Shown here piece by piece: positions 11,415 through 60,957 of a stretch of 61,446 nt of DNA; within the stretch, counting starts at the first letter, position 1, and each line of letters opens with the position of its first letter. Location: assembly GCA_947470025.1 (NCBI GenBank), contig CANIRU010000003.1:1-61446 (forward strand), written 5' to 3'. The stretch is from Chloroflexota bacterium. GTDB lineage: Bacteria; Chloroflexota; Dehalococcoidia; UBA2979. The notes below the pieces were generated by a model. That model did no database searches, was not told the DNA's origin, and saw nothing but the letters and a program-made list of their open reading frames with translations. Both the position numbers and the translations under genes were made by a program.

Positions 11415-13022
11415 CTACCAGCCGGCGGCGGCCCCGTCCGCGCGAGGATCGGTGGCGGCAGTGAAGAAGCCGCCGGCCCCGTCCAGGGCGATCGCGTTCG
11501 TGTGACCGACGGCGTGGTCCCACGCATCGCCTACCTCGACGCGATGTCCCATGCGCGCGAGCGCATCGATCGTCTCGCTGCCGAAGCGCGACTCCACGCG
11601 CAGCGTGTGCGCGTCGCGGCCGTCGACGGAGCCGGAGATCCAGCGCGGAGCGGCGAGGGCCTCGGCGAGGCCCATGCGCTGGTCGACGATGCGGTTCAGC
11701 AGCTGAACGTGCGTCTGCGGCTGGCCGTGCGCGCCCCTCGTGCCGAACGCCAGCGCGAACTTGCCGTCGCGCAGCGCCATCGCCGGAGCAAGCGTGTGGA
11801 ACGGGCGCTTGCCGGCGGCGAGCGCGTTTGGGTGCGACTCGTCGAGGTTGAAGCCTGCGCCGCGGTTGTGCAGCAGGATGCCAGTGTCCCCGGCGACGAG
11901 GCCGGACCCGAAGATCCAATACAGGCTCTGCGTGATCGCGACCGCGTTGCCGTCGCGGTCCATCACCGTGAGGAACACGGTGTCGCCGTGGCCGCCGGGG
12001 CTGACCGCCACGCCCGCCCGTGTCTCGTCGATGCATGCGCGTGCCTCGGCGGCCCACTCGGCCGACAACAGCCGCGCGAGGGGGGCGGGCTCGCGCATGA
12101 ACGCCGGATCGGCGACCCAGCGGTCGCGCTCGGCGAACGCCTGGTGCTTCGCCTCGACCATCAGGTGCAGCTCGCGCGCGGCCTGCGAGCCGTCCGGGGC
12201 GAAGTCGTAGCCCTCCAGGATCTGCGTCATCAGCAGCGCGGCCATGCCGTGGCTGTTGGGCGGCGCCTCGAGCACCTCAAGGCCACGGTAATGACCGCGC
12301 AGCGGCGTCACCCAGTCCGCTGGGACGTGGGCCTCGAAGTCCTCGGCGGTGAGCAGGCCGCCCGCCGCCTGCACGGAGGACGCGATGCGCCCGGCGAGCT
12401 CGCCGCGATAGAACGCGTCGCGGCCGCCCTCGGCGATCAGGCGCATCGACGCCGCGAGGTCGGGCAGGCGCAGCCGGTCGCCAACCGCCGGCGCGCGGCC
12501 ACCATCGAGGTACCGCGCCTTCGCGTCCGACGACATGTCGGGGATCGACCGCGCGATGTTCGAGGACAGGAAGCGGCCGACCGGGAAACCCTCGGACGCG
12601 TATCGGATCGCCGGCGCCAGCGCCCGCGCGAGGTCCCATGTACCGTGGCGCTTCAGCGCGACGTCCCACGCATCGACGGTGCCCGGCACGGTGACCGGCA
12701 GTGGCCCGCGGGTCGGCATCTCCTCAAGGCCGCGCGCCCGGTACGCGGCGGTGGTCATGGCGGCCCCGGCGCGCCCGCTGCCGTTGAGCGCCGTGATCTC
12801 GCCGGTCTTGCCGTCGCGATAGAGCATCAGCAGGTCGCCGCCGAGCCCGCACGCCGCCAGCTCCACGACGCCGAGGACGGCGTTCGCGGTCACCGCCGCG
12901 TCGATGGCGTTGCCGCCCTCCATCAGGGCCCCCATCGCCGCCTGCGTCGCGAGGTAGTGGGGCGTGGCGGCGGCACCTCGCTCGGCGCGGATCAGCGGGA
13001 GCGGCGTGGGCGACATCGTCAT
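11415..13022 (-). CDS. ggt: Gamma-glutamyltransferase family protein
   Basis: GGNAIDAAV, GLGGDLLM, TVPGTVDAW, DTVFLTVMD (nucleophile Thr), KRPFHTLAP and DPRADG motifs. Confidence 0.92.
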   Translation of the reverse strand: MTMSPTPLPLIRAERGAAATPHYLATQAAMGALMEGGNAIDAAVTANAVLGVVELAACGLGGDLLMLYRDGKTGEITALNGSGRAGAAMTTAAYRARGLEEMPTRGPLPVTVPGTVDAWDVALKRHGTWDLARALAPAIRYASEGFPVGRFLSSNIARSIPDMSSDAKARYLDGGRAPAVGDRLRLPDLAASMRLIAEGGRDAFYRGELAGRIASSVQAAGGLLTAEDFEAHVPADWVTPLRGHYRGLEVLEAPPNSHGMAALLMTQILEGYDFAPDGSQAARELHLMVEAKHQAFAERDRWVADPAFMREPAPLARLLSAEWAAEARACIDETRAGVAVSPGGHGDTVFLTVMDRDGNAVAITQSLYWIFGSGLVAGDTGILLHNRGAGFNLDESHPNALAAGKRPFHTLAPAMALRDGKFALAFGTRGAHGQPQTHVQLLNRIVDQRMGLAEALAAPRWISGSVDGRDAHTLRVESRFGSETIDALARMGHRVEVGDAWDHAVGHTNAIALDGAGGFFTAATDPRADGAAAGW

Positions 13023-13231
13023 AGCGGTTCCGTTCGAGAGTGCCAGCGTCGAGTACCGGCGCATTATCAGCGCAACTGGTTTCGAGCGGTCGCAGGGCTT
13101 CCGGCTGCTCGCTCGGACGGTTTGACATGATGTCGCCACGAATCCGGCGGCAGCGGAACGGACGACGAGCGAGCAGCGTCACACAATGAGGCCTCGGCCT
13201 CCTTGAGAGACCACAGAAGAATCGAGCCTCC

Positions 13232-19634: not shown

Positions 19635-20852
19635 CTAGCCGCGCGGCAGGCCGAGGCCGCGCGTGGCGATGATGCCGCGCTGGATCTCGGAGGTGCCGCT
19701 GGCGATTGTCGCCGACACGGAACGCACGTACGACCTCGTCGGCCCGGCGCCCATCGCGGCGCGGTCGCTCTCGTTGTCCCACACGTTGGCGTAGAGGCCG
19801 AACGCCTTCACGCCGGTGTTGGCGACGCGCTGGGCGAGCTCGGAGCCGAACGTCTTGCTGACGGAGGCCTCGTAGTTCGGCACCATGCCACGCGCCTGGA
19901 TCGAGATGATGCGCAGCGAGAAGTTGTACATCACCTCGCTCTCGATGTAGCGGTCGGTGAGCGCGTCGCGGACGGACGGGAACTCGTGGATGCGGGACTG
20001 CTCAGCGCCCGCACCCTTCGCGTAGTCGATCAGCCGCGTGATCTCGCGGCGGGCGGCGACGGCACCGGTGATGTTCGACCGCTCGAAGTCGAGCAGCGTC
20101 ATGCCGACGTACCAGCCGCGGTTCTCCTCGCCGACCCGGTTGGAGACCGGGACGCGGACGTTGTCGAAGAACGTCTCGTTGAAGTGGTGCTCGTCCGCCA
20201 TGTTCACCAGCGGGCGGATCGTGATGCCGGGGGTCGCCTTGTTCATCAACACGAACGACACGCCACGGTGCTTCGGCGCCTCCGGGTCGGTACGCACGAG
20301 GACGAAGAGCCAGTCGGCGAAGTGACCGCCGGAGGTCCAGATCTTCTGGCCGTTGACCACGTAGTCGTCGCCGTCTCGGACGGCGCGGGTCTTCAGGTTC
20401 GCGAGGTCGGAGCCGGCCTCCGGTTCCGAGTAGCCCTGGGCCCACACCACCTCGCCGCTGAGCAGCTTCGGCAGGTGTTCCTTCTTCTGCTCCTCGGTGC
20501 CGTGAATGATCAACGTCGGGCCCAGCATGGAGGCGCCAGCCGGAAGACCCTGCGGCACTTCGGCGATCGTCATCTCCTGCTTGTAGATGAACTGCTCCAT
20601 TGGGGAGAGGCCGGCCCCGCCGTATTCCTTCGGCCAGTGCGGGGCAACCCACCGCTTCTCGCCCAGCGCGTCCACCCACTGCTGCGAGATACGCTGCACC
20701 GCCGGGTCGGAGTCCTTGCGGTCCTCCATCCAGTCGTACTGCGAACCGAAGCCCTGCTGGTCGCGCTGGTAGCGCGGCGGCACCTTCGTATCGATGAAGG
20801 TACGTACCTCCTGGCGGAAGGCCGACTGCTCAGGAGTGTCGTTCCAGTCCAT
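19635..20852 (-). CDS. Acyl-CoA dehydrogenase (FadE26/FadE29-like, catalytic subunit type)
   Basis: WAQGYSEPEAGSDLA, NGQKIWTS, FNETFFDNVRVP, LDFERS and ATIASGTSEIQR motifs. Confidence 0.93.
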   Translation of the reverse strand: MDWNDTPEQSAFRQEVRTFIDTKVPPRYQRDQQGFGSQYDWMEDRKDSDPAVQRISQQWVDALGEKRWVAPHWPKEYGGAGLSPMEQFIYKQEMTIAEVPQGLPAGASMLGPTLIIHGTEEQKKEHLPKLLSGEVVWAQGYSEPEAGSDLANLKTRAVRDGDDYVVNGQKIWTSGGHFADWLFVLVRTDPEAPKHRGVSFVLMNKATPGITIRPLVNMADEHHFNETFFDNVRVPVSNRVGEENRGWYVGMTLLDFERSNITGAVAARREITRLIDYAKGAGAEQSRIHEFPSVRDALTDRYIESEVMYNFSLRIISIQARGMVPNYEASVSKTFGSELAQRVANTGVKAFGLYANVWDNESDRAAMGAGPTRSYVRSVSATIASGTSEIQRGIIATRGLGLPRG

Positions 20853-27057: not shown

Positions 27058-28233
27058 TCAGTCCCGAGGTAGCCCCAGTCCTCGCTGTGCAATGAGGTTG
27101 CGCTGGATCTCGGACGTGCCCCCCGCCACCGTCGCCGCCGTGGCACGCAAGTACTCCTGCGAGAACGCCCCGGCCAGCTTCGCGTACCGGCTGCCGGGTG
27201 CGGCCTGCGCGGCGAGGCCGAGGAGGTGCATCCCGGTGTTCGCGACGCGCTGGGTCAACTCGGAGCCGTACAGTTTCGCCTCGTGGGCCTCCTGGTCGGG
27301 CTGCTGGCCCTGCGCCTGGAGGTGCGGCACACGGTACGAGACGTTGAACCCGACCTGGATTTCGATCCACCGGTCCGCCAGCTCGTAACGCGCCGAGGGG
27401 TTCCGTCCGATCAGCGAGTCGTCGTCACGCGCCGCCTCGACGAGCCGCTCGATGTTGGCCTTCGCCGTCGAGATTGCGCCGACGCCTGAGCGCTCAAGGT
27501 CGCTGGCGGTCTGCATCTGGTACCAGCCGGCATTCTCGCGACCGACCATGTGCTGCACGGGGACACGCACGTCCTCGAAGATCACTTCGCTGAGGTCGCG
27601 CTCACCCGCGAGCGTGTCCAGGGGGCGCACGGTCACACCGGGCGCGTCCATCGGCACGATGATCGTGGAGATGCCGTCCTGCGGCGCGCCCTTCGCGTCC
27701 GTGCGCGCGGCAAGCAGACCGTAGGTGGCGCGCTCCGCGCCGGACACCCACGTCTTCGCGCCGCTGATCACGTACTCGTCGCCGTCGCGCACCGCGCGCG
27801 TCTGCATCGCGGCCACGTCGGAGCCCGCGTCGTCCTCGACGGTCAGGGTGCACCAGCGGTCGAGGCCCGCGGCAATGCGCGGGAGGTACTGCTCCTGCTG
27901 CGCGCGCGAGCCGAAGCGCTGGATCGACGGCCCGACCGAGGCAACGCCGGCGCCACCGCCGCCAGGCATCCGCATGTACGCCGTCTCTTCGGTGTAGATC
28001 GCCTGCTGCACGTGCCCCGCGCCCAGGCCGCCGTACTGCTTCGCCCACGGCAGCGCGAGCCACCCCTTGCCGGCGAGCGCTCGCGTCACGGCGTCATCGA
28101 CGCCCCGCTGCTCATCCCTCGACACGTCGCCGAGGAAGTCGCGCTCCGACCAGTCCGCGGGCAGCTGGGCAGCGAGGAACGCCCGCAGCTCGTGGCGAAA
28201 GCGCTCCTCCTCCGGGGTGAACGTGAACTCCAT
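27058..28233 (-). CDS. Acyl-CoA dehydrogenase, divergent catalytic-type subunit
   Basis: AGSDVAAMQTRA, EVIFEDVRVP, DLERS and TVAGGTSEIQRN; the canonical QGYSEP is replaced by TLTVED. Confidence 0.88.
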   Translation of the reverse strand: MEFTFTPEEERFRHELRAFLAAQLPADWSERDFLGDVSRDEQRGVDDAVTRALAGKGWLALPWAKQYGGLGAGHVQQAIYTEETAYMRMPGGGGAGVASVGPSIQRFGSRAQQEQYLPRIAAGLDRWCTLTVEDDAGSDVAAMQTRAVRDGDEYVISGAKTWVSGAERATYGLLAARTDAKGAPQDGISTIIVPMDAPGVTVRPLDTLAGERDLSEVIFEDVRVPVQHMVGRENAGWYQMQTASDLERSGVGAISTAKANIERLVEAARDDDSLIGRNPSARYELADRWIEIQVGFNVSYRVPHLQAQGQQPDQEAHEAKLYGSELTQRVANTGMHLLGLAAQAAPGSRYAKLAGAFSQEYLRATAATVAGGTSEIQRNLIAQRGLGLPRD

Positions 28234-28291: not shown

Positions 28292-29512
28292 TTAGCCGCG
28301 AGGAAGACCCAACCCCCGCGTGGCGATGATGCCACGCTGAATCTCGGACGTACCGGCAGCAATCGTCGACGAGACGCTGAGGCAGTACGCCTTGGGGAAC
28401 GAGCCGCGCACCGGCGCCTTTTCTTCGTCCCAGACACCGCCCCACAGGCCGAGCGCCTTCACGCCGGTGTTGGCCATCTTCTGCGACAACTCGGAGCCGA
28501 ACAGCTTGTTCACGGACGCCTCGTAGTTCGGGATCAGTCCACGCTCCTGCATCGAGATGATGCGGAACGAGAAGTTGAACTGGACCTCGGACTCAATGTA
28601 GCGGTCGGCGATCGCGGAGCGGATGGATGGGTAGTCCTTCACGCGCGCGTTCTCTTTGCCTGCGCCGTTCACATAGTCCATGAGGCGGCGGATCTGACGA
28701 CGCGCGGAGACGGCGCCCGTGATGTTGGAGCGCTCGTAGTCCAGCAACGTCATGGAGACGTACCAGCCGCGGTTCTCTTCACCTACCCGGTTCGCGACGG
28801 GGACGCGCACGTCCTCGAAGAACGTCTCGTTGAAGTGGTGGACCCACGCCATGTTGACCAGCGGGCGGACCGTGATGCCCGGCGTGCTCTTGTCCATCAT
28901 GATCAGCGAGATGCCGCGGTGCTTCGGCGCCTCGGGGTCGGTGCGGCAGAGGACGTAGAGCCAGTCCGCGAGGTGCCCGCCGGACGTCCAGATCTTCTGG
29001 CCGTTCACCACGTAGAAGTCACCGTCACGCGTGGCACGGGTCTGGAGCGACGCGAGGTCGGAGCCCGCGCCCGGCTCAGAGAAGCCCTGCGCCCAGATGC
29101 GCTCGCCCGCGAGGATCAGCGGGATGTGCTCGGCCTTCTGCTCGGGCGTGCCGTGCACGACCAACGCCGGGCCGAACTGGCTGACGCCCTGGCCGCCCAC
29201 ACGTCGAGGAGCGGCGGCCATCGCCATCTCCTGGTTGTAGATCATCTGCTCGATCGGGCTGAGGCCGGCCCCGCCGTACTCGACGGGCCAGTGCGGGGCG
29301 ATCCAGCCGCGCTCGGAAATCGCCTTCGCCCACTCGGCGGCGGCGGCCTGCGCCTCGGGGTTCGCGGAGCGACGCTCGACCATCCACTCGACGCCATCGC
29401 CCTCGCCCTCGCCGCCGTCGTCGCCGCGATAGCGGGCGGGGAGCTTCTCGGCGATGAGCTGGCGGACGCCTGCGCGGAATTCTGCCTGCGCGGGGCTGTC
29501 GTTCCAATCCAT
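28292..29512 (-). CDS. Acyl-CoA dehydrogenase (catalytic-type), close paralog of 19635..20852
   Basis: WAQGFSEPGAGSDLA, NGQKIWTS, LDYERS and STIAAGTSEIQR motifs. Confidence 0.93.
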   Translation of the reverse strand: MDWNDSPAQAEFRAGVRQLIAEKLPARYRGDDGGEGEGDGVEWMVERRSANPEAQAAAAEWAKAISERGWIAPHWPVEYGGAGLSPIEQMIYNQEMAMAAAPRRVGGQGVSQFGPALVVHGTPEQKAEHIPLILAGERIWAQGFSEPGAGSDLASLQTRATRDGDFYVVNGQKIWTSGGHLADWLYVLCRTDPEAPKHRGISLIMMDKSTPGITVRPLVNMAWVHHFNETFFEDVRVPVANRVGEENRGWYVSMTLLDYERSNITGAVSARRQIRRLMDYVNGAGKENARVKDYPSIRSAIADRYIESEVQFNFSFRIISMQERGLIPNYEASVNKLFGSELSQKMANTGVKALGLWGGVWDEEKAPVRGSFPKAYCLSVSSTIAAGTSEIQRGIIATRGLGLPRG

Positions 29513-30598: not shown

Positions 30599-31822
30599 AT
30601 GGAACTACGCGACGCCGTCATCTGCAGCCCGCTTCGCACCCCGGTCGGTCGCTTCGGCGGCGTCTTCAAGGACGTCACCGCGCTCGACCTCGCGGCCACC
30701 GTCCTGAAGGCGCTGGTCGAGCGCACCGGCATCGACCCCGCGGTGATCGAGGACTGCATCTTCGGGCAGGGCTACGCGAGCGGTGAGGCACCGGCGATCG
30801 GTCGCGTCGCCATGCTGCAGGCGGGCTTCCCGATCGACGTCCCCGGTCTCCAGCTCGACCGCCGCTGCGGCTCCGGCCTCCAGGCGATCTGCTACGCGAC
30901 GATGATGGTGCAGACCGGGGCGGCCGACGTGGTCGTCGCGGGCGGCGCCGAGAGCATGAGCAACGTCGAGTTCTACAGCACCCAGATGCGCTGGGGGCCG
31001 AACGACGGCAAGATCGAGCTCTTCGACCGCCTGGCGCGCGCGCGCGTCACGGCCGGCAGCGACTGCCACCCCGTGCCGGGCGGCATGATCGAGACCGCCG
31101 AGAACCTCCGACGCCAGTACAGCATCCCTCGTGCCGAGCAGGACGCGTACTCGCTCCGGTCGCACCAGCGCGCCGTCGCCGCGTGGGACGCGGGCAAGTT
31201 CGCCAACGAAACCGTCCCGGTGCGTGTGCCGCAGCGCCGTGGCGAGGACAAGATCGTCGACCGCGACGAGCACCCCCGCGCGGACACGACTCTCGAGGCG
31301 CTCGCGGGCCTGCGCGCGATCTACGGGCGCGACGACCCCGAGTCCACCGTGACGGCTGGTAACTCGAGCGGCCAGAATGACGCCGCCGCCGCATGCATCG
31401 TCACGACGATGGAGAAGGCGAAAGAGCTCGGCCTCACACCGGTCGGCCGCATCCTCGGCTGGTCGGTCGCCGGCGTCGCGCCGGAGACGATGGGCATCGG
31501 CCCGGTCGCGTCGACGAAGAAGGTGTTCGACCGGCTCGGCATGGGCATGAAGGACATGGAAGTCATCGAGCTGAACGAGGCATTCGCCTCGCAGGTGCTC
31601 GCGGTGACGAAGGAGTGGGGCTTCACGGACGCCGACTGGGACCGCACGAACCCGAACGGTTCAGGCATCGCGATCGGTCACCCCATCGCCGCGACCGGCG
31701 CGCGCATCATGGCGACGCTGCTCAACGAGATGGAGCGCCGCGACGCCCAGATCGGCCTCGAGACCATGTGCATCGGCGGCGGTCAGGGCATCTCCGCCGT
31801 CGTGGAGCGCATCAAGGCGTAG
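30599..31822 (+). CDS. Acetyl-CoA C-acyltransferase (thiolase)
   Basis: RTPVG, DRRCGSG (acyl Cys), NEAF, GHP and CIGGGQG motifs. Confidence 0.95.
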   Translation: MELRDAVICSPLRTPVGRFGGVFKDVTALDLAATVLKALVERTGIDPAVIEDCIFGQGYASGEAPAIGRVAMLQAGFPIDVPGLQLDRRCGSGLQAICYATMMVQTGAADVVVAGGAESMSNVEFYSTQMRWGPNDGKIELFDRLARARVTAGSDCHPVPGGMIETAENLRRQYSIPRAEQDAYSLRSHQRAVAAWDAGKFANETVPVRVPQRRGEDKIVDRDEHPRADTTLEALAGLRAIYGRDDPESTVTAGNSSGQNDAAAACIVTTMEKAKELGLTPVGRILGWSVAGVAPETMGIGPVASTKKVFDRLGMGMKDMEVIELNEAFASQVLAVTKEWGFTDADWDRTNPNGSGIAIGHPIAATGARIMATLLNEMERRDAQIGLETMCIGGGQGISAVVERIKA

Positions 31823-31873: not shown

Positions 31874-31907
31874 TCGGTGTTCATCGCAGCGTTCGAGGCG
31901 CGAAGCA

Positions 31908-32151
31908 GGGCGGCCCATCCCCCTGCCCCCTTCCCGGCGCGGAAAGGGGGATGACTGGCGAGGGCGTAGCCCTCGCCCTCCCCCGAGATCGAGGGTGCTT
32001 CGCACCTCGACGCCGGCGAAGGCTCGAATCCCTCGCGCCAACATGGCGCTGCCTGTGAAGTTCCGCCGGGAGTGTGAGGGGCGCAGCTCCTCACACTTGG
32101 TTCTCTTCTTCTGACCCCTCCCGCGCCGGGAGGGGAAGGGGTGGGCCGCCC
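31908..32151 (+). repeat. Composite inverted-REP element, copy A
   Basis: Left unit gggcggcccatccccctgcccccttccc..ggaaaggggg. The right 93 nt (32059-32151) match 56993-57085 at all but one base. Confidence 0.9.
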
Positions 32152-32231
32152 TCGCTGCCATCTCAACGTCACGAGGATCGTGGAGAGGGCCTCGCGGCCC
32201 CCTCACGTCGAGCAACCTCGATCGGTCGTGG

Positions 32232-43023: not shown

Positions 43024-43118
43024 AACTCCGCCGGAAGTGTGAGGGGCGCAGTTCCTCGCACCTGGTTCTCTGCTTCTGAACCCCTCCCGCGCCGGGAGAA
43101 GCAGGAGTGGGCCGCCCC
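43024..43118 (+). repeat. Composite REP element, degenerate right half (copy D)
   Basis: aactccgccggaagtgtgaggggcgcagttcctcgcacctggttctc...cccctcccgcgccgggag...gtgggccgcccc aligns with the 93-nt core of copies A and B. Confidence 0.85.
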
Positions 43119-43271
43119 TCGCGGGCACCCCGGCGCCACTCGTGACGTCGAGGGTTCGCTCGATCGGCCGACCGGACTTTGCCCTCGGCGCGAAACGGGC
43201 CAAGATGGGAGGACACTCCCCGCCCGCCGCGCACGCTCCCCACACCGCGGGCAGCCCCGAAGGAACCTCCC

Positions 43272-44948
<1,677 letters not shown>

Positions 44949-44961
44949 CGCCCGTCCCCTT

Positions 44962-45007
44962 CCCCCACCCCAACCCTCCCCGTGAAGGGGGAGGGTTGGG
45001 GTGGGGG
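44962..45007. repeat. Solo BoxC-like palindrome with a 20-bp perfect stem
   Basis: cccccaccccaaccctcccc-gtgaag-ggggagggttggggtggggg between convergent genes. Confidence 0.75.
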
Positions 45008-54472: not shown

Positions 54473-54639
54473 CGGTGATCTCCAAATCGGCGCGGCGTGT
54501 GCTTGTGGCGGGAGTGCGTGGGTGTCGAACCCACCCGGGACCGCGACGCGGCCCCGCAACGGTTTTGAAGACCGCGGACATCACCGGACACCATCCACTC
54601 CCGCCCGGATGATAGCGGGAGGCGGGACCCTGGGGTGCG

Positions 54640-56660: not shown

Positions 56661-56734
56661 CCCTCGGACGGTTCGAGGTGCGACGGCGCGCGGGAGCATC
56701 CTCACCGCGACGAGTCTCGTCGCGGTGGCAACGC

Positions 56735-57086
56735 GGGGCGGCCCATCCCCCTGCCCCCTTCCCTGTGCGGGAAGGGGGATGAATGGCGAGGACTCCGCCC
56801 TCGCGCTCCCACCGAAACGAGCATGCTTCGCGCCTCGGTTCCCCCGATCGCACAGCCTCACCCTGCCCTCTCCCCCTCGAAGGGGCGCGGTTTTGATGAG
56901 AGCGCCCAGCTCGCGATCGGAACTACCCCTCGGCAGCGACATCTCCATGCGGCGGTGCGAATCCCTCGCACCGACCCAACGCAGCCACATCGAGTTCCGC
57001 CGGGAGTGTGAGGGGCGCAGCTCCTCACACTTGGTTCTCTTCTTCTGACCCCTCCCGCGCCGGGAGGGGTAGGGGTGGGCCGCCCC
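56735..57086 (+). repeat. Composite inverted-REP element, copy B
   Basis: Left unit ggggcggcccatccccctgcccccttccc-tgtgc-gggaagggggatga, an internal cctcaccctgccctctcccc unit, and the 93-nt core at 56993-57085. Confidence 0.9.
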
Positions 57087-57172
57087 ACACGCCACCTCGA
57101 CAGGGCTCGCGGCGCGGACGGCGCTCCCGCTCCTGCGAGGCAATCCTCGACCTCCGGCCGCGTGGACAAGCA

Positions 57173-60002: not shown

Positions 60003-60107
60003 GGCCGCCATGCTAGCCGACCCGCCGACGGGCGGCGAGGCGGACGAGCCGTCGGCGAGCGGATGGGGGCGTGGGTCTCATGTTTGAGAGTGGCGTCGAT
60101 CTGGCAG

Positions 60108-60308
60108 CGCGGGAGGGGTTCAGAAGGAAGAGAACCAACTGTGAGGAGCCGCGCCCCTCATGCTCTCGGCGGAATCGTGCGTTTCTAGAATGCGATATCC
60201 GAGCGTGGGCGAAGCCGCACGATCCGGACCGAGAGCCCGACGGGCACAGCCCCTCGGATCTCATCCCCCTTCCCGCGCAGGGAAGGGGGCAGGGGGATGG
60301 GCCGCCCC
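60108..60308 (-). repeat. Composite REP element, copy C (reverse orientation, one end truncated)
   Basis: The reverse complement of 60261-60308 matches the copy B left unit at all but one base; 60108-60175 is a diverged core. Confidence 0.88.
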
Positions 60309-60372
60309 ACGCTGGCACCTCGAGCGCCCTTGCCACGTCGACGCTTCGCCCGCTCCGCCTCGGCAGCGGCGC

Positions 60373-60900: not shown

Positions 60901-60957
60901 GCGCGTCAGGATAGGACATACGTTCGCCATCGTCAGCCGGGCGGCTCGCTCGGACGC

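Follow-up and report, generated by a model that had tools for sequence, protein, structure and literature searches.

A composite variant of the BoxC/PIT/TM repeats as a probable non-autonomous mobile element of freshwater Dehalococcoidia

Repeats of the BoxC/PIT/TM class have been known since the 1990s from hundreds of bacterial genomes, and to our knowledge they have been assigned no established function, enzyme or mode of spread. The BoxC, PIT and TMECO sequences were reportedly described by Bachellier and co-workers in the 1990s and by Hoyne et al. in 2000. Here we describe a dispersed family of composite repeats, bounded by units of this class, in a stretch of 61,446 nucleotides (nt) from a Chloroflexota bacterium (the window: positions 1 to 61,446 of contig CANIRU010000003.1, assembly GCA_947470025.1; class Dehalococcoidia, UBA2979). 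In E. coli, the TMECO consensus is CCCTCNCCC-N3-6-GGGNGAGGG-N3-GGGNGAGGG (PMC4666352). Holder et al. (2015) reported that TM loci are locally unstable and have no transposase nearby, and the E. coli PIT/TM units showed neither promoter nor terminator activity (PMC4666352). The E. coli BoxC/PIT/TMECO sequence also acts as a G-quadruplex-hairpin-duplex switch (PMC5100583). Among repetitive extragenic palindromes (REPs), Di Nocera et al. (2013) described dimers that lie within longer palindromes and are never found alone, namely GTAG-15 of A. variabilis and CGTC-1 of H. neapolitanus (PMC3733652). The original prediction for the window, made from its letters alone, was of a family resembling REPINs and bacterial interspersed mosaic elements (BIMEs), present in four copies that we call A to D, with inverted BoxC-like units around a conserved hairpin core. 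We refer to the two kinds of end unit as L and R.

The window belongs to a metagenome-assembled genome (MAG), here G000, of 2.17 Mb in 152 contigs, with 69% G+C and 80% completeness. Our genus sample consists of this genome and seven others, all of them MAGs, of which G007 is the closest relative of G000; in what follows, G-codes denote genomes, C-codes contigs and L-codes loci fetched from relatives. On the evidence of this comparison, we think it rather likely that the family is selfish, non-coding and non-autonomous DNA of a freshwater Dehalococcoidia lineage that is mobile or was so recently. Copy A illustrates arrival at an empty site. Its ortholog in G007 (contig C82) has 14 nt where the window has positions 31881-32227, and the flanks are 92-94% identical with an upstream terminator hairpin that is intact in both genomes. 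Neither arms nor units are present at the G007 site, and this empty site defines the block listed as the insert of copy A in Table 1. The absence of copy A from G007 also marks it as a young copy. In Logan unitigs, which break at the repeat, both copy A junctions were spanned without differences in three lake metagenome runs; copy A is fixed there, and no contig with an empty site was seen. Beyond this copy, 97 gap-size polymorphisms were counted between G000 and about 100 loci of relatives, and at many of them just one of the two sides carries the element. Over about 123 kb of alignment between G000 and G007, the gap sites were seven in G007 only, two in G000 only and six shared, in addition to nine collinear shared cores. 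This sample is skewed toward loci that are filled in G007 because they were fetched by an L-unit pattern.

The clearest evidence for the manner of insertion comes from another contig of G000. At C16:27412, G000 has no element, and two minus-strand cistrons (C16:27390-27547) overlap through an intact stop/start sequence, GTGATG. Five other species (L003, L005, L034, L037 and L040) carry an insert of 350-440 nt at this site. The insert is flanked on both sides by GAGGTGCG(C)G, each copy of which is continuous with its own flank, and G000 has the sequence only once. The C16 site carries a genuine target-site duplication (TSD) of 9-10 bp. In the filled species, the upstream cistron ends early at a TAG located just inside the element, and local effects such as this new stop codon are certain. 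A second probable duplication, CGCGC(C)G(G)ATC, was found by comparing L056 with C40. Among 31 full copies, six have a flanking 10-mer in common on both sides compared with 2.2 +/- 1.3 in shuffled pairings, which is a weak enrichment. An automatic junction and TSD caller applied to 18 filled/empty pairs over-extended in the GC-rich, low-complexity flanks, and its output was excluded as evidence. The 9-10 bp duplication at the clean filled/empty C16 site overturns the earlier statement that no target-site duplication is present, a statement that followed from boundaries drawn too narrowly.

The true boundaries of the element lie further out (Table 1). A full unit measures about 330-450 nt, and each side is an imperfect inverted repeat of about 90-100 nt in which an outer arm of TCGAGG-containing modules adjoins a 45-nt unit of the BoxC/TM type. 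The interior is asymmetric: next to the L end is a variable hairpin (H2), followed by another hairpin and a spacer that differs in length among copies, and the core hairpin with its T-rich tail then leads to the R end. The core hairpin is AGTGTGAGGGGC-GCA-GCTCCTCACACT. This hairpin and the end-unit pattern GGGCGGCCCAY-CCCCT-N-CCCCT(T)CCC-N5-GGGA(A)GGGG had been recognized correctly, and the four copies were recovered where they had been placed: A at 31908-32151, B at 56736-57085 (56735-57086 in the original prediction), C at 60108-60307 and reversed, and D at 43024-43117. These ends are too narrow. The c(a/g)cctcga motif that had been noticed about 8 nt outside them is part of conserved inverted arms that extend for about 45-50 nt past both end units. 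An alignment of 121 arms gave the consensus C(A/G)CGCTGnCACCTCGACgccaCTCGCnacgnCGAcgccnCGCC, which is the same on both sides, with conservation fading outward into a C-rich zone (G-rich on the left side). The block of copy A has TTCGAGG as its first letters and CCTCGA as its last.

A hidden Markov model (HMM) of the arms retrieved almost no stand-alone arms, and all of its good matches abut L, R or variant ends. Given this result, the arms hardly occur without an adjoining end and belong to the element. The same scarcity of stand-alone copies ruled out the idea that the arms are an independent palindromic target repeat. Strict co-variation of the left and right arms within a copy was only weakly raised (0.58 vs 0.51), with few copies driving the signal, and was dropped as an argument. 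Inside the element, which contains no open reading frame (ORF), the H2 stems exist in at least 12 sequence variants across copies, every one of them perfectly complementary, and the third internal hairpin has a consensus structure with compensatory pairs. The single-stranded DNA fold of copy A has a z of -6.8. Hairpin structure is strongly kept through compensatory changes, while the tips of the element are not conserved. Within the window, copy D is one of the 31 solo R halves of G000 and copy C has an R end shortened by about 30 nt. A fifth locus, a sister-type unit absent from the original list, occupies a convergent spacer whose flanking genes end at 44948 and 45033.

Table 1. Positions of the repeat copies and their parts in the window
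Feature	Position	Strand	Remarks
Copy A, whole inserted block	31892..32222	+	~330 nt, right edge +/-4 nt; absent from the G007:C82 ortholog
Copy A, short left outer arm	31892..31907	+	TTCGAGGCGCGAAGCA; inside the block missing from G007; fits inner part of arm consensus
Copy A, L-type triplex-motif end unit	31908..31952	+	tag GGGCGGCCCA, third strand (A)TCCCCC, arms CCCCCTTCCC / GGAAAGGGGG
Copy A, variable hairpin H2	31957..31977	+	GGCGAGGGC-GTA-GCCCTCGCC
Copy A, third internal hairpin	31990..32009	+	CGAGGGTGC-TT-CGCACCTCG
Copy A, conserved core hairpin	32071..32097	+	followed by T-rich tract 32098-32114; terminator-like look
Copy A, R-type triplex-motif end unit	32115..32151	+	CCCCTCCC-GCGCC-GGGAGGGG-AA-GGGGTGGG-CCGCCC
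Copy A, right outer arm	32152..32222	+	three TCGA modules, end ...AACCTCGA; part of the block that G007 lacks
Copy D, solo R half with right arm	43024..43154	+	core hairpin 43036-43063, R unit 43081-43117, arm 43118-43154
T4 sister-type triplex-motif unit	44962..45007	.	hairpin CCCTCCCC-GTGAAG-GGGGAGGG, mirrored third strand on both sides
Copy B with arms	56672..57157	+	arms 56672-56735 (left) and 57086-57157 (right); units L 56736-56780 and R 57049-57085; hairpins H2 56785-56804 and core 57005-57031
Degenerate T3-like (E. coli TMECO-like) unit in spacer of copy B	56856..56890	+	purine arm pairs incompletely; absent from G007
Copy C with arms, reversed	60086..60344	-	arms 60086-60109 and 60308-60344; L unit 60263-60307; core hairpin 60139-60162; R end truncated

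The end units connect the family to the BoxC/PIT/TM class. In each, a loop separates a pyrimidine arm from a purine arm, and a second loop of 2-3 nt leads to a block mirroring the purine arm. G000 contains 160 units of this triplex-motif design, which fall into four main types. The purine arm and the mirrored third block are GGGAAGGGGG and GGGGGATGGG in the L type (linker CA), GGGAGGGG and GGGGTGGG in the R type (linker NA), GGGGAGAGGG and GGGTGAGGG in type T3, and GGGGGAGGG and GGGTGGGGG in type T4. In all four, the third block tracks its own arm in length, in the position of A/T and in the T-for-A rule, as in E. coli. Low-complexity controls give high values (23-33% vs 45% per strand), and for this reason the type-specific matching of arm and third strand is the stronger evidence for a triplex design. 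The arrangement of pyrimidine block, purine block and mirrored third block by which the class is recognized (a class II purine motif) is present in both L and R units, and the end-unit third strand could take part in either an intrastrand triplex or a G-quadruplex. The L and R arms (GGGAAGGGGG and GGGAGGGG) differ and do not fit the published TMECO consensus; about 24 T3 sister units in G000 fit it exactly (CCCTCTCCCC-GTTT-GGGGAGAGGG-TTG-GGGTGAGGG). With L and R outside the TMECO pattern, the family represents a variant within this class and not TMECO itself. The T3 and T4 units occur solo or in tight inverted pairs and are not associated with a core.

In its wider behavior, the family resembles E. 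coli BoxC/PIT/TMECO not only in the three-block design with T opposite A in the mirrored purine block but also in being G/C-rich, intergenic and multi-copy, in occurring in both orientations without strand or gene-orientation bias and often as inverted pairs, and in having transposase-free surroundings and locally unstable loci. In contrast to E. coli BoxC, the L and R units have an outer tag, GGGCGGCCCA, that is conserved, and they terminate a composite of 330-450 nt with arms and an interior that is both structured and asymmetric. The copies are also about 10 times as dense as in E. coli K-12, where there are 23 in 4.6 Mb, and target duplication and whole-block insertion, neither of which has been reported for BoxC, are documented here. 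The classification that suits the element best is as a new composite variant within the BoxC/PIT/TM class, with behavior like that of a non-autonomous mobile element.

Genome-wide blastn searches, as had been recommended for establishing copy number, found 78 L units and 73 cores in the 2.17 Mb of G000, or about 75 copies of the family. These comprise 42 pairs of L and core, 36 solo L units and 31 solo R/core halves. The pairs span 197-356 nt between the ends as first drawn, with a mode of 220-250. Such abundance is far above chance. Several G000 contigs have the element at their edge (C32:13, C94:1-46, C108:1 and C138:6-34). Contigs that start or end inside the element identify the family as one cause of MAG fragmentation, and its copy number is probably underestimated. 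All eight genomes of the genus carry the repeat, as do two to three additional genera within this taxonomic family. When 185,579 GTDB species representative genomes were scanned for an exact 24-mer of the L unit, 90 loci were found, all in MAGs of Chloroflexota/Dehalococcoidia. The source MAGs are from freshwater, nearly all from lakes or reservoirs (Baikal-deep-G123/G124, those with names beginning RH- and MoH-, K_Offshore and others). Collections of viral contigs and plasmids contained no match to the family, and no Rfam family matches the element.

Recent spread or homogenization had been proposed from the identity of copies A and B over 92 of 93 nt. The identity itself is correct and lies between the R halves, but it does not reflect the family in general. 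Among R halves, identity has a median of 0.80 over all pairs and of 0.90 between nearest neighbours; of the 2278 pairs, A-B alone (0.989) lies at >=0.97. The L half of copy A is 85% identical to that of B and has its nearest relatives on contig C66. Combining an R half about 99% like that of B with so different an L half, copy A is a chimera. The likeness of A and B points to copying or conversion of halves and not to a simple burst, and it looks like a single event of this kind.

Elements that have arrived are also altered in place. At the C16 site and at copy C of the window, orthologous arms keep their orientation from species to species while the interior is flipped; at the copy C site, the element that these arms enclose in G007 is complete and runs the opposite way. 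Such in-place inversion is what recombination between inverted repeats about 100 nt long should produce. The copy B site is filled in G007:C11 with a spacer that is 117 nt shorter, and the missing block holds the nested, degenerate T3-like unit of Table 1. At C9:8428, the arms have been kept and the interior is replaced by 55 nt. At 60942-60954 of the window, G000 has only GGGCGGCTCGCTCGG, which begins like the end tag, where G007:C11 (about 12895-13078) has a mosaic of about 180 nt assembled from an arm, an R unit, an H2-type hairpin and a T4 unit. The short G000 sequence may be an excision or deletion footprint.

The element enters intergenic DNA as a whole block, in one case between two overlapping cistrons, and 9-10 bp of the target can be duplicated in the process. 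Interior inversion, internal deletion, nesting of sister units and the copying or conversion of halves between copies then reshape what has been inserted. Because the tips are not conserved and the hairpins are kept by compensation, we infer an enzyme that recognizes structure. Such an enzyme would act in trans and read the folded ends, as single-strand hairpin or triplex, instead of a defined terminal sequence. Overall, the element is probably trans-mobilised and selfish. The leading candidate for the enzyme would be a DUF559 nuclease (Vsr-like, PD-(D/E)XK-type), for which genes are present in seven of the eight genomes of the genus. The DUF559 protein of G000, 146 aa long, is a bona fide member of this family, with matches to PF04480 (E 3e-33) and PDB entry 3HRL, an "endonuclease-like protein". 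A nuclease gene flanked by units, with DUF559 as one possibility, had been suggested as something to look for. Flanking units were indeed found within about 100 nt of the DUF559 gene at 11 of 11 loci in the genus and on both sides at eight of these, compared with a chance expectation of a few percent per locus, but they are the sister units T3 and T4 and never L or R. At the DUF559 gene of G000 (C120:3102-3542, minus strand) and at L103-L113, the bracketing units are inverted with their third strands facing the gene. The arrangement is reminiscent of REP-RAYT systems, in which a small nuclease gene is bracketed by units and many orphan units lie elsewhere. We regard DUF559 as no more than a candidate. 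A broader proposal, that BoxC/TM triplex-hairpin units are the working ends of a structure-recognising system that inserts composites with a 9-10 bp duplication and is served in trans by DUF559, is offered as speculation that we ourselves hold to be unlikely.

A number of observations weigh against these interpretations. Concerning the enzyme, L- and R-type units with the GGGCGGCCCA tag occur at none of the 11 DUF559 loci, DUF559 is absent from G002 (91% complete), G017 and G019, all of which carry the family, and it is found in many genomes that do not. Concerning autonomy, neither an autonomous copy nor a gene bracketed by L/R ends was found; in G000 and about 100 loci from relatives, no transposase-sized ORF was found between L and R. 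Candidate long copies, in which L and R are paired more than 420 nt apart, enclose ordinary genes only, such as that for a cupredoxin in L015. In a single case, two ends face outward at a distance below 1.3 kb, and they enclose an ORF of 136 aa with no evident nuclease features, its ORF family not having been searched. The C16 site is filled in G007, the closest relative, and empty in G000, which would result from insertion or from precise excision in G000; the duplication holds regardless. It is the only clean duplication (n=1), and most filled/empty pairs are too diverged to be read, with some showing none (L035/C23 and L083/C129). Arms range in length from 16 to 78 nt and the outermost tips of TSD-defined copies have no common sequence, unlike any characterised transposon. 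The family is old, as the nearest-neighbour median of the R halves shows; most of its copies are probably decaying, and any present-day activity is hypothetical. Finally, the sample consists of MAGs, which are prone to losing repeats and insertion sequence (IS) elements.

Much of the anatomy would also suit a classical MITE (a miniature transposable element with inverted repeats), that is, an internally deleted IS derivative whose DDE transposase (IS4, IS256, ISAs1 or IS1 type, with a 9-10 bp TSD) is missing from the MAGs or has been lost. Like the MITEs Correia/NEMIS, RUP and Nezha, the element is non-coding and a few hundred nt long, has long terminal inverted repeats (an arm of about 45-50 nt plus the 45-nt unit on each side), lies in intergenic regions or between cistrons, varies in presence among relatives and, at the clean C16 site, shows a target duplication. 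IS copies are often unassembled in MAGs, and several of the elements are at contig ends. No parent IS with matching terminal repeats and a transposase was found in these MAGs, PF01609 being the only DDE family searched. DDE_Tnp_1 (PF01609, IS4/IS5 type) is absent from six of the eight genus genomes, including G000 and G007, in a search that did not extend to rve, IS256, IS630 or IS110, and the lack of any L/R pair around a transposase-sized ORF also argues against such a parent. DDE enzymes need defined tips, whereas the tips here are not conserved and the arms vary in length, and MITEs do not share the repeats of about 90-100 nt made of stacked hairpin and triplex modules or the in-place inversion of the interior. 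We therefore regard a MITE as unlikely, while granting it an appreciable chance. A cognate DDE IS had been named in the original prediction, together with few copies and no polymorphism, as a finding that would speak against a dispersed family, and the genome searches and site comparisons gave instead many copies and many polymorphic sites. Transposition could also be dispensed with altogether if the copies arose by host recombination or by replication errors at palindromes (template switching, gene conversion between copies, or slippage between short direct repeats promoted by the long hairpin), so that the apparent TSDs are microhomologies of deletion or switching. The chimeric nature of copy A, with its nearest L half on another contig, would follow readily, as would the variable arms and unconserved tips, the persistence of arms around a replaced interior, the footprint-like remnants and the link between TM loci and local instability (PMC4666352). 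What such events do not explain is arrival at an empty, unrelated site, and G007 has neither arms nor units at the position of copy A. The C16 element, moreover, sits between overlapping cistrons with each duplication copy continuous with its own flank, and some 75 copies of a specific 330-nt architecture over 2-3 Mb need a dispersal step. Recombination alone is thus, in our estimation, distinctly improbable.

Selection for a host function would offer another reason for the conservation of structure. The element could be a module for transcript ends, RNA stability or a small RNA, or a platform for nucleoid or topology proteins as has been proposed for BIMEs. Its core hairpin with the T-rich tract resembles an intrinsic terminator, its hairpins are kept by compensatory changes, its location is strictly intergenic, and faint metatranscriptome contigs cover an R half. 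These contigs, which were the outcome of the RNA check originally advised, are few, of low depth and from the R halves of other copies in four metatranscriptomes; with DNA carry-over possible, they are not informative. Gene orientation shows no bias (29 co-directional vs 25), and the elements occupy tandem, convergent and divergent spacers at roughly background proportions, which agrees with the earlier conclusion that they are not simple terminators. The lack of orientation bias and of an Rfam family led us to reject the reading as a terminator or functional RNA, and the inactivity of E. coli PIT/TM units as promoters or terminators (PMC4666352) points the same way. Close species differ freely in whether an orthologous site is empty, filled, inverted or half-deleted. 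Selection for a host role is therefore unlikely, and as a full account of the family we judge it very unlikely. The prediction of a REPIN, two inverted REP units moved by a RAYT (HUH Y1) transposase, fares worst in its mechanism. Its descriptive part stands: the family is dispersed and mosaic, organized like BIMEs with inverted BoxC-like ends around hairpins, and, as in REP/REPIN-RAYT systems, its units occur solo, in inverted pairs and in mosaics, with structure kept by compensatory change. Searches of G000, the genus and 40 relatives found RAYT absent wherever the element is present; Y1_Tnp/RAYT (PF01797) is missing from all eight genus genomes, G017 and G019, and six control genomes including E. 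coli were positive. The units are 45 nt long with the GGGCGGCCCA tag and do not have the GTAG (or CGTC) tag or the 20-40 nt REP form (PMC3733652). Furthermore, HUH enzymes make no target duplication, in contrast to what is found here, and the candidate nuclease is a Vsr-like DUF559 protein and not an HUH enzyme. The closest parallel among REPs is with the GTAG-15 and CGTC-1 dimers, whose paired units always have extra inverted arms, just as nearly all good arm matches abut an L/R end here; the present family differs in having triplex-motif units in place of GTAG/CGTC REPs and a much larger interior. We give a RAYT-driven REPIN almost no credence, and a selfish element mobilised in trans remains the reading that we prefer.

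Other features of the genome were noticed along the way. In about 1,600 crude gene calls from G000 (GC3-based ORF filter), TAG is the dominant stop codon at 66%, followed by TGA at 20% and TAA at 14%; examples of TAG stops in the window are at 31820-31822, 56658-60 and 32232-34. TGA would be expected as the main stop in a genome of 69% G+C, and the TAG excess from these crude calls would suggest an unusual release-factor/stop-codon economy, possibly tied to the use of TGA for selenocysteine. A tRNA-Sec gene is located at 54510-54602 of the window on the minus strand (Rfam RF01852, 71.9 bits). The window also has three to four paralogous coding segments (19637-20680, 27060-28074 and 28294-29334) with 70-77% DNA identity (repeat families D1 and D3-D6), which are probably a tandem or dispersed gene family and have no relation to the repeat element.

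For a class of repeats whose origin has been a puzzle for 30 years, this lineage is a rich natural experiment, with four types of unit, about 160 units in all, within 2.2 Mb and with arrival at empty sites that can be read base by base. On the practical side, the elements break assemblies, enter between cistrons and supply new stop codons, which matters for the annotation of abundant freshwater MAGs. If the link to DUF559 holds, it would supply a mechanism, open to experimental test, for a class of repeats that is widespread in bacteria. Were the broader proposal of structure-recognising ends served in trans by DUF559 also true, it would amount to a second nuclease-repeat partnership, analogous to REP/RAYT and independent of RAYT, and would solve how BoxC/PIT repeats originated and spread in E. 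coli, cyanobacteria and Chloroflexota.

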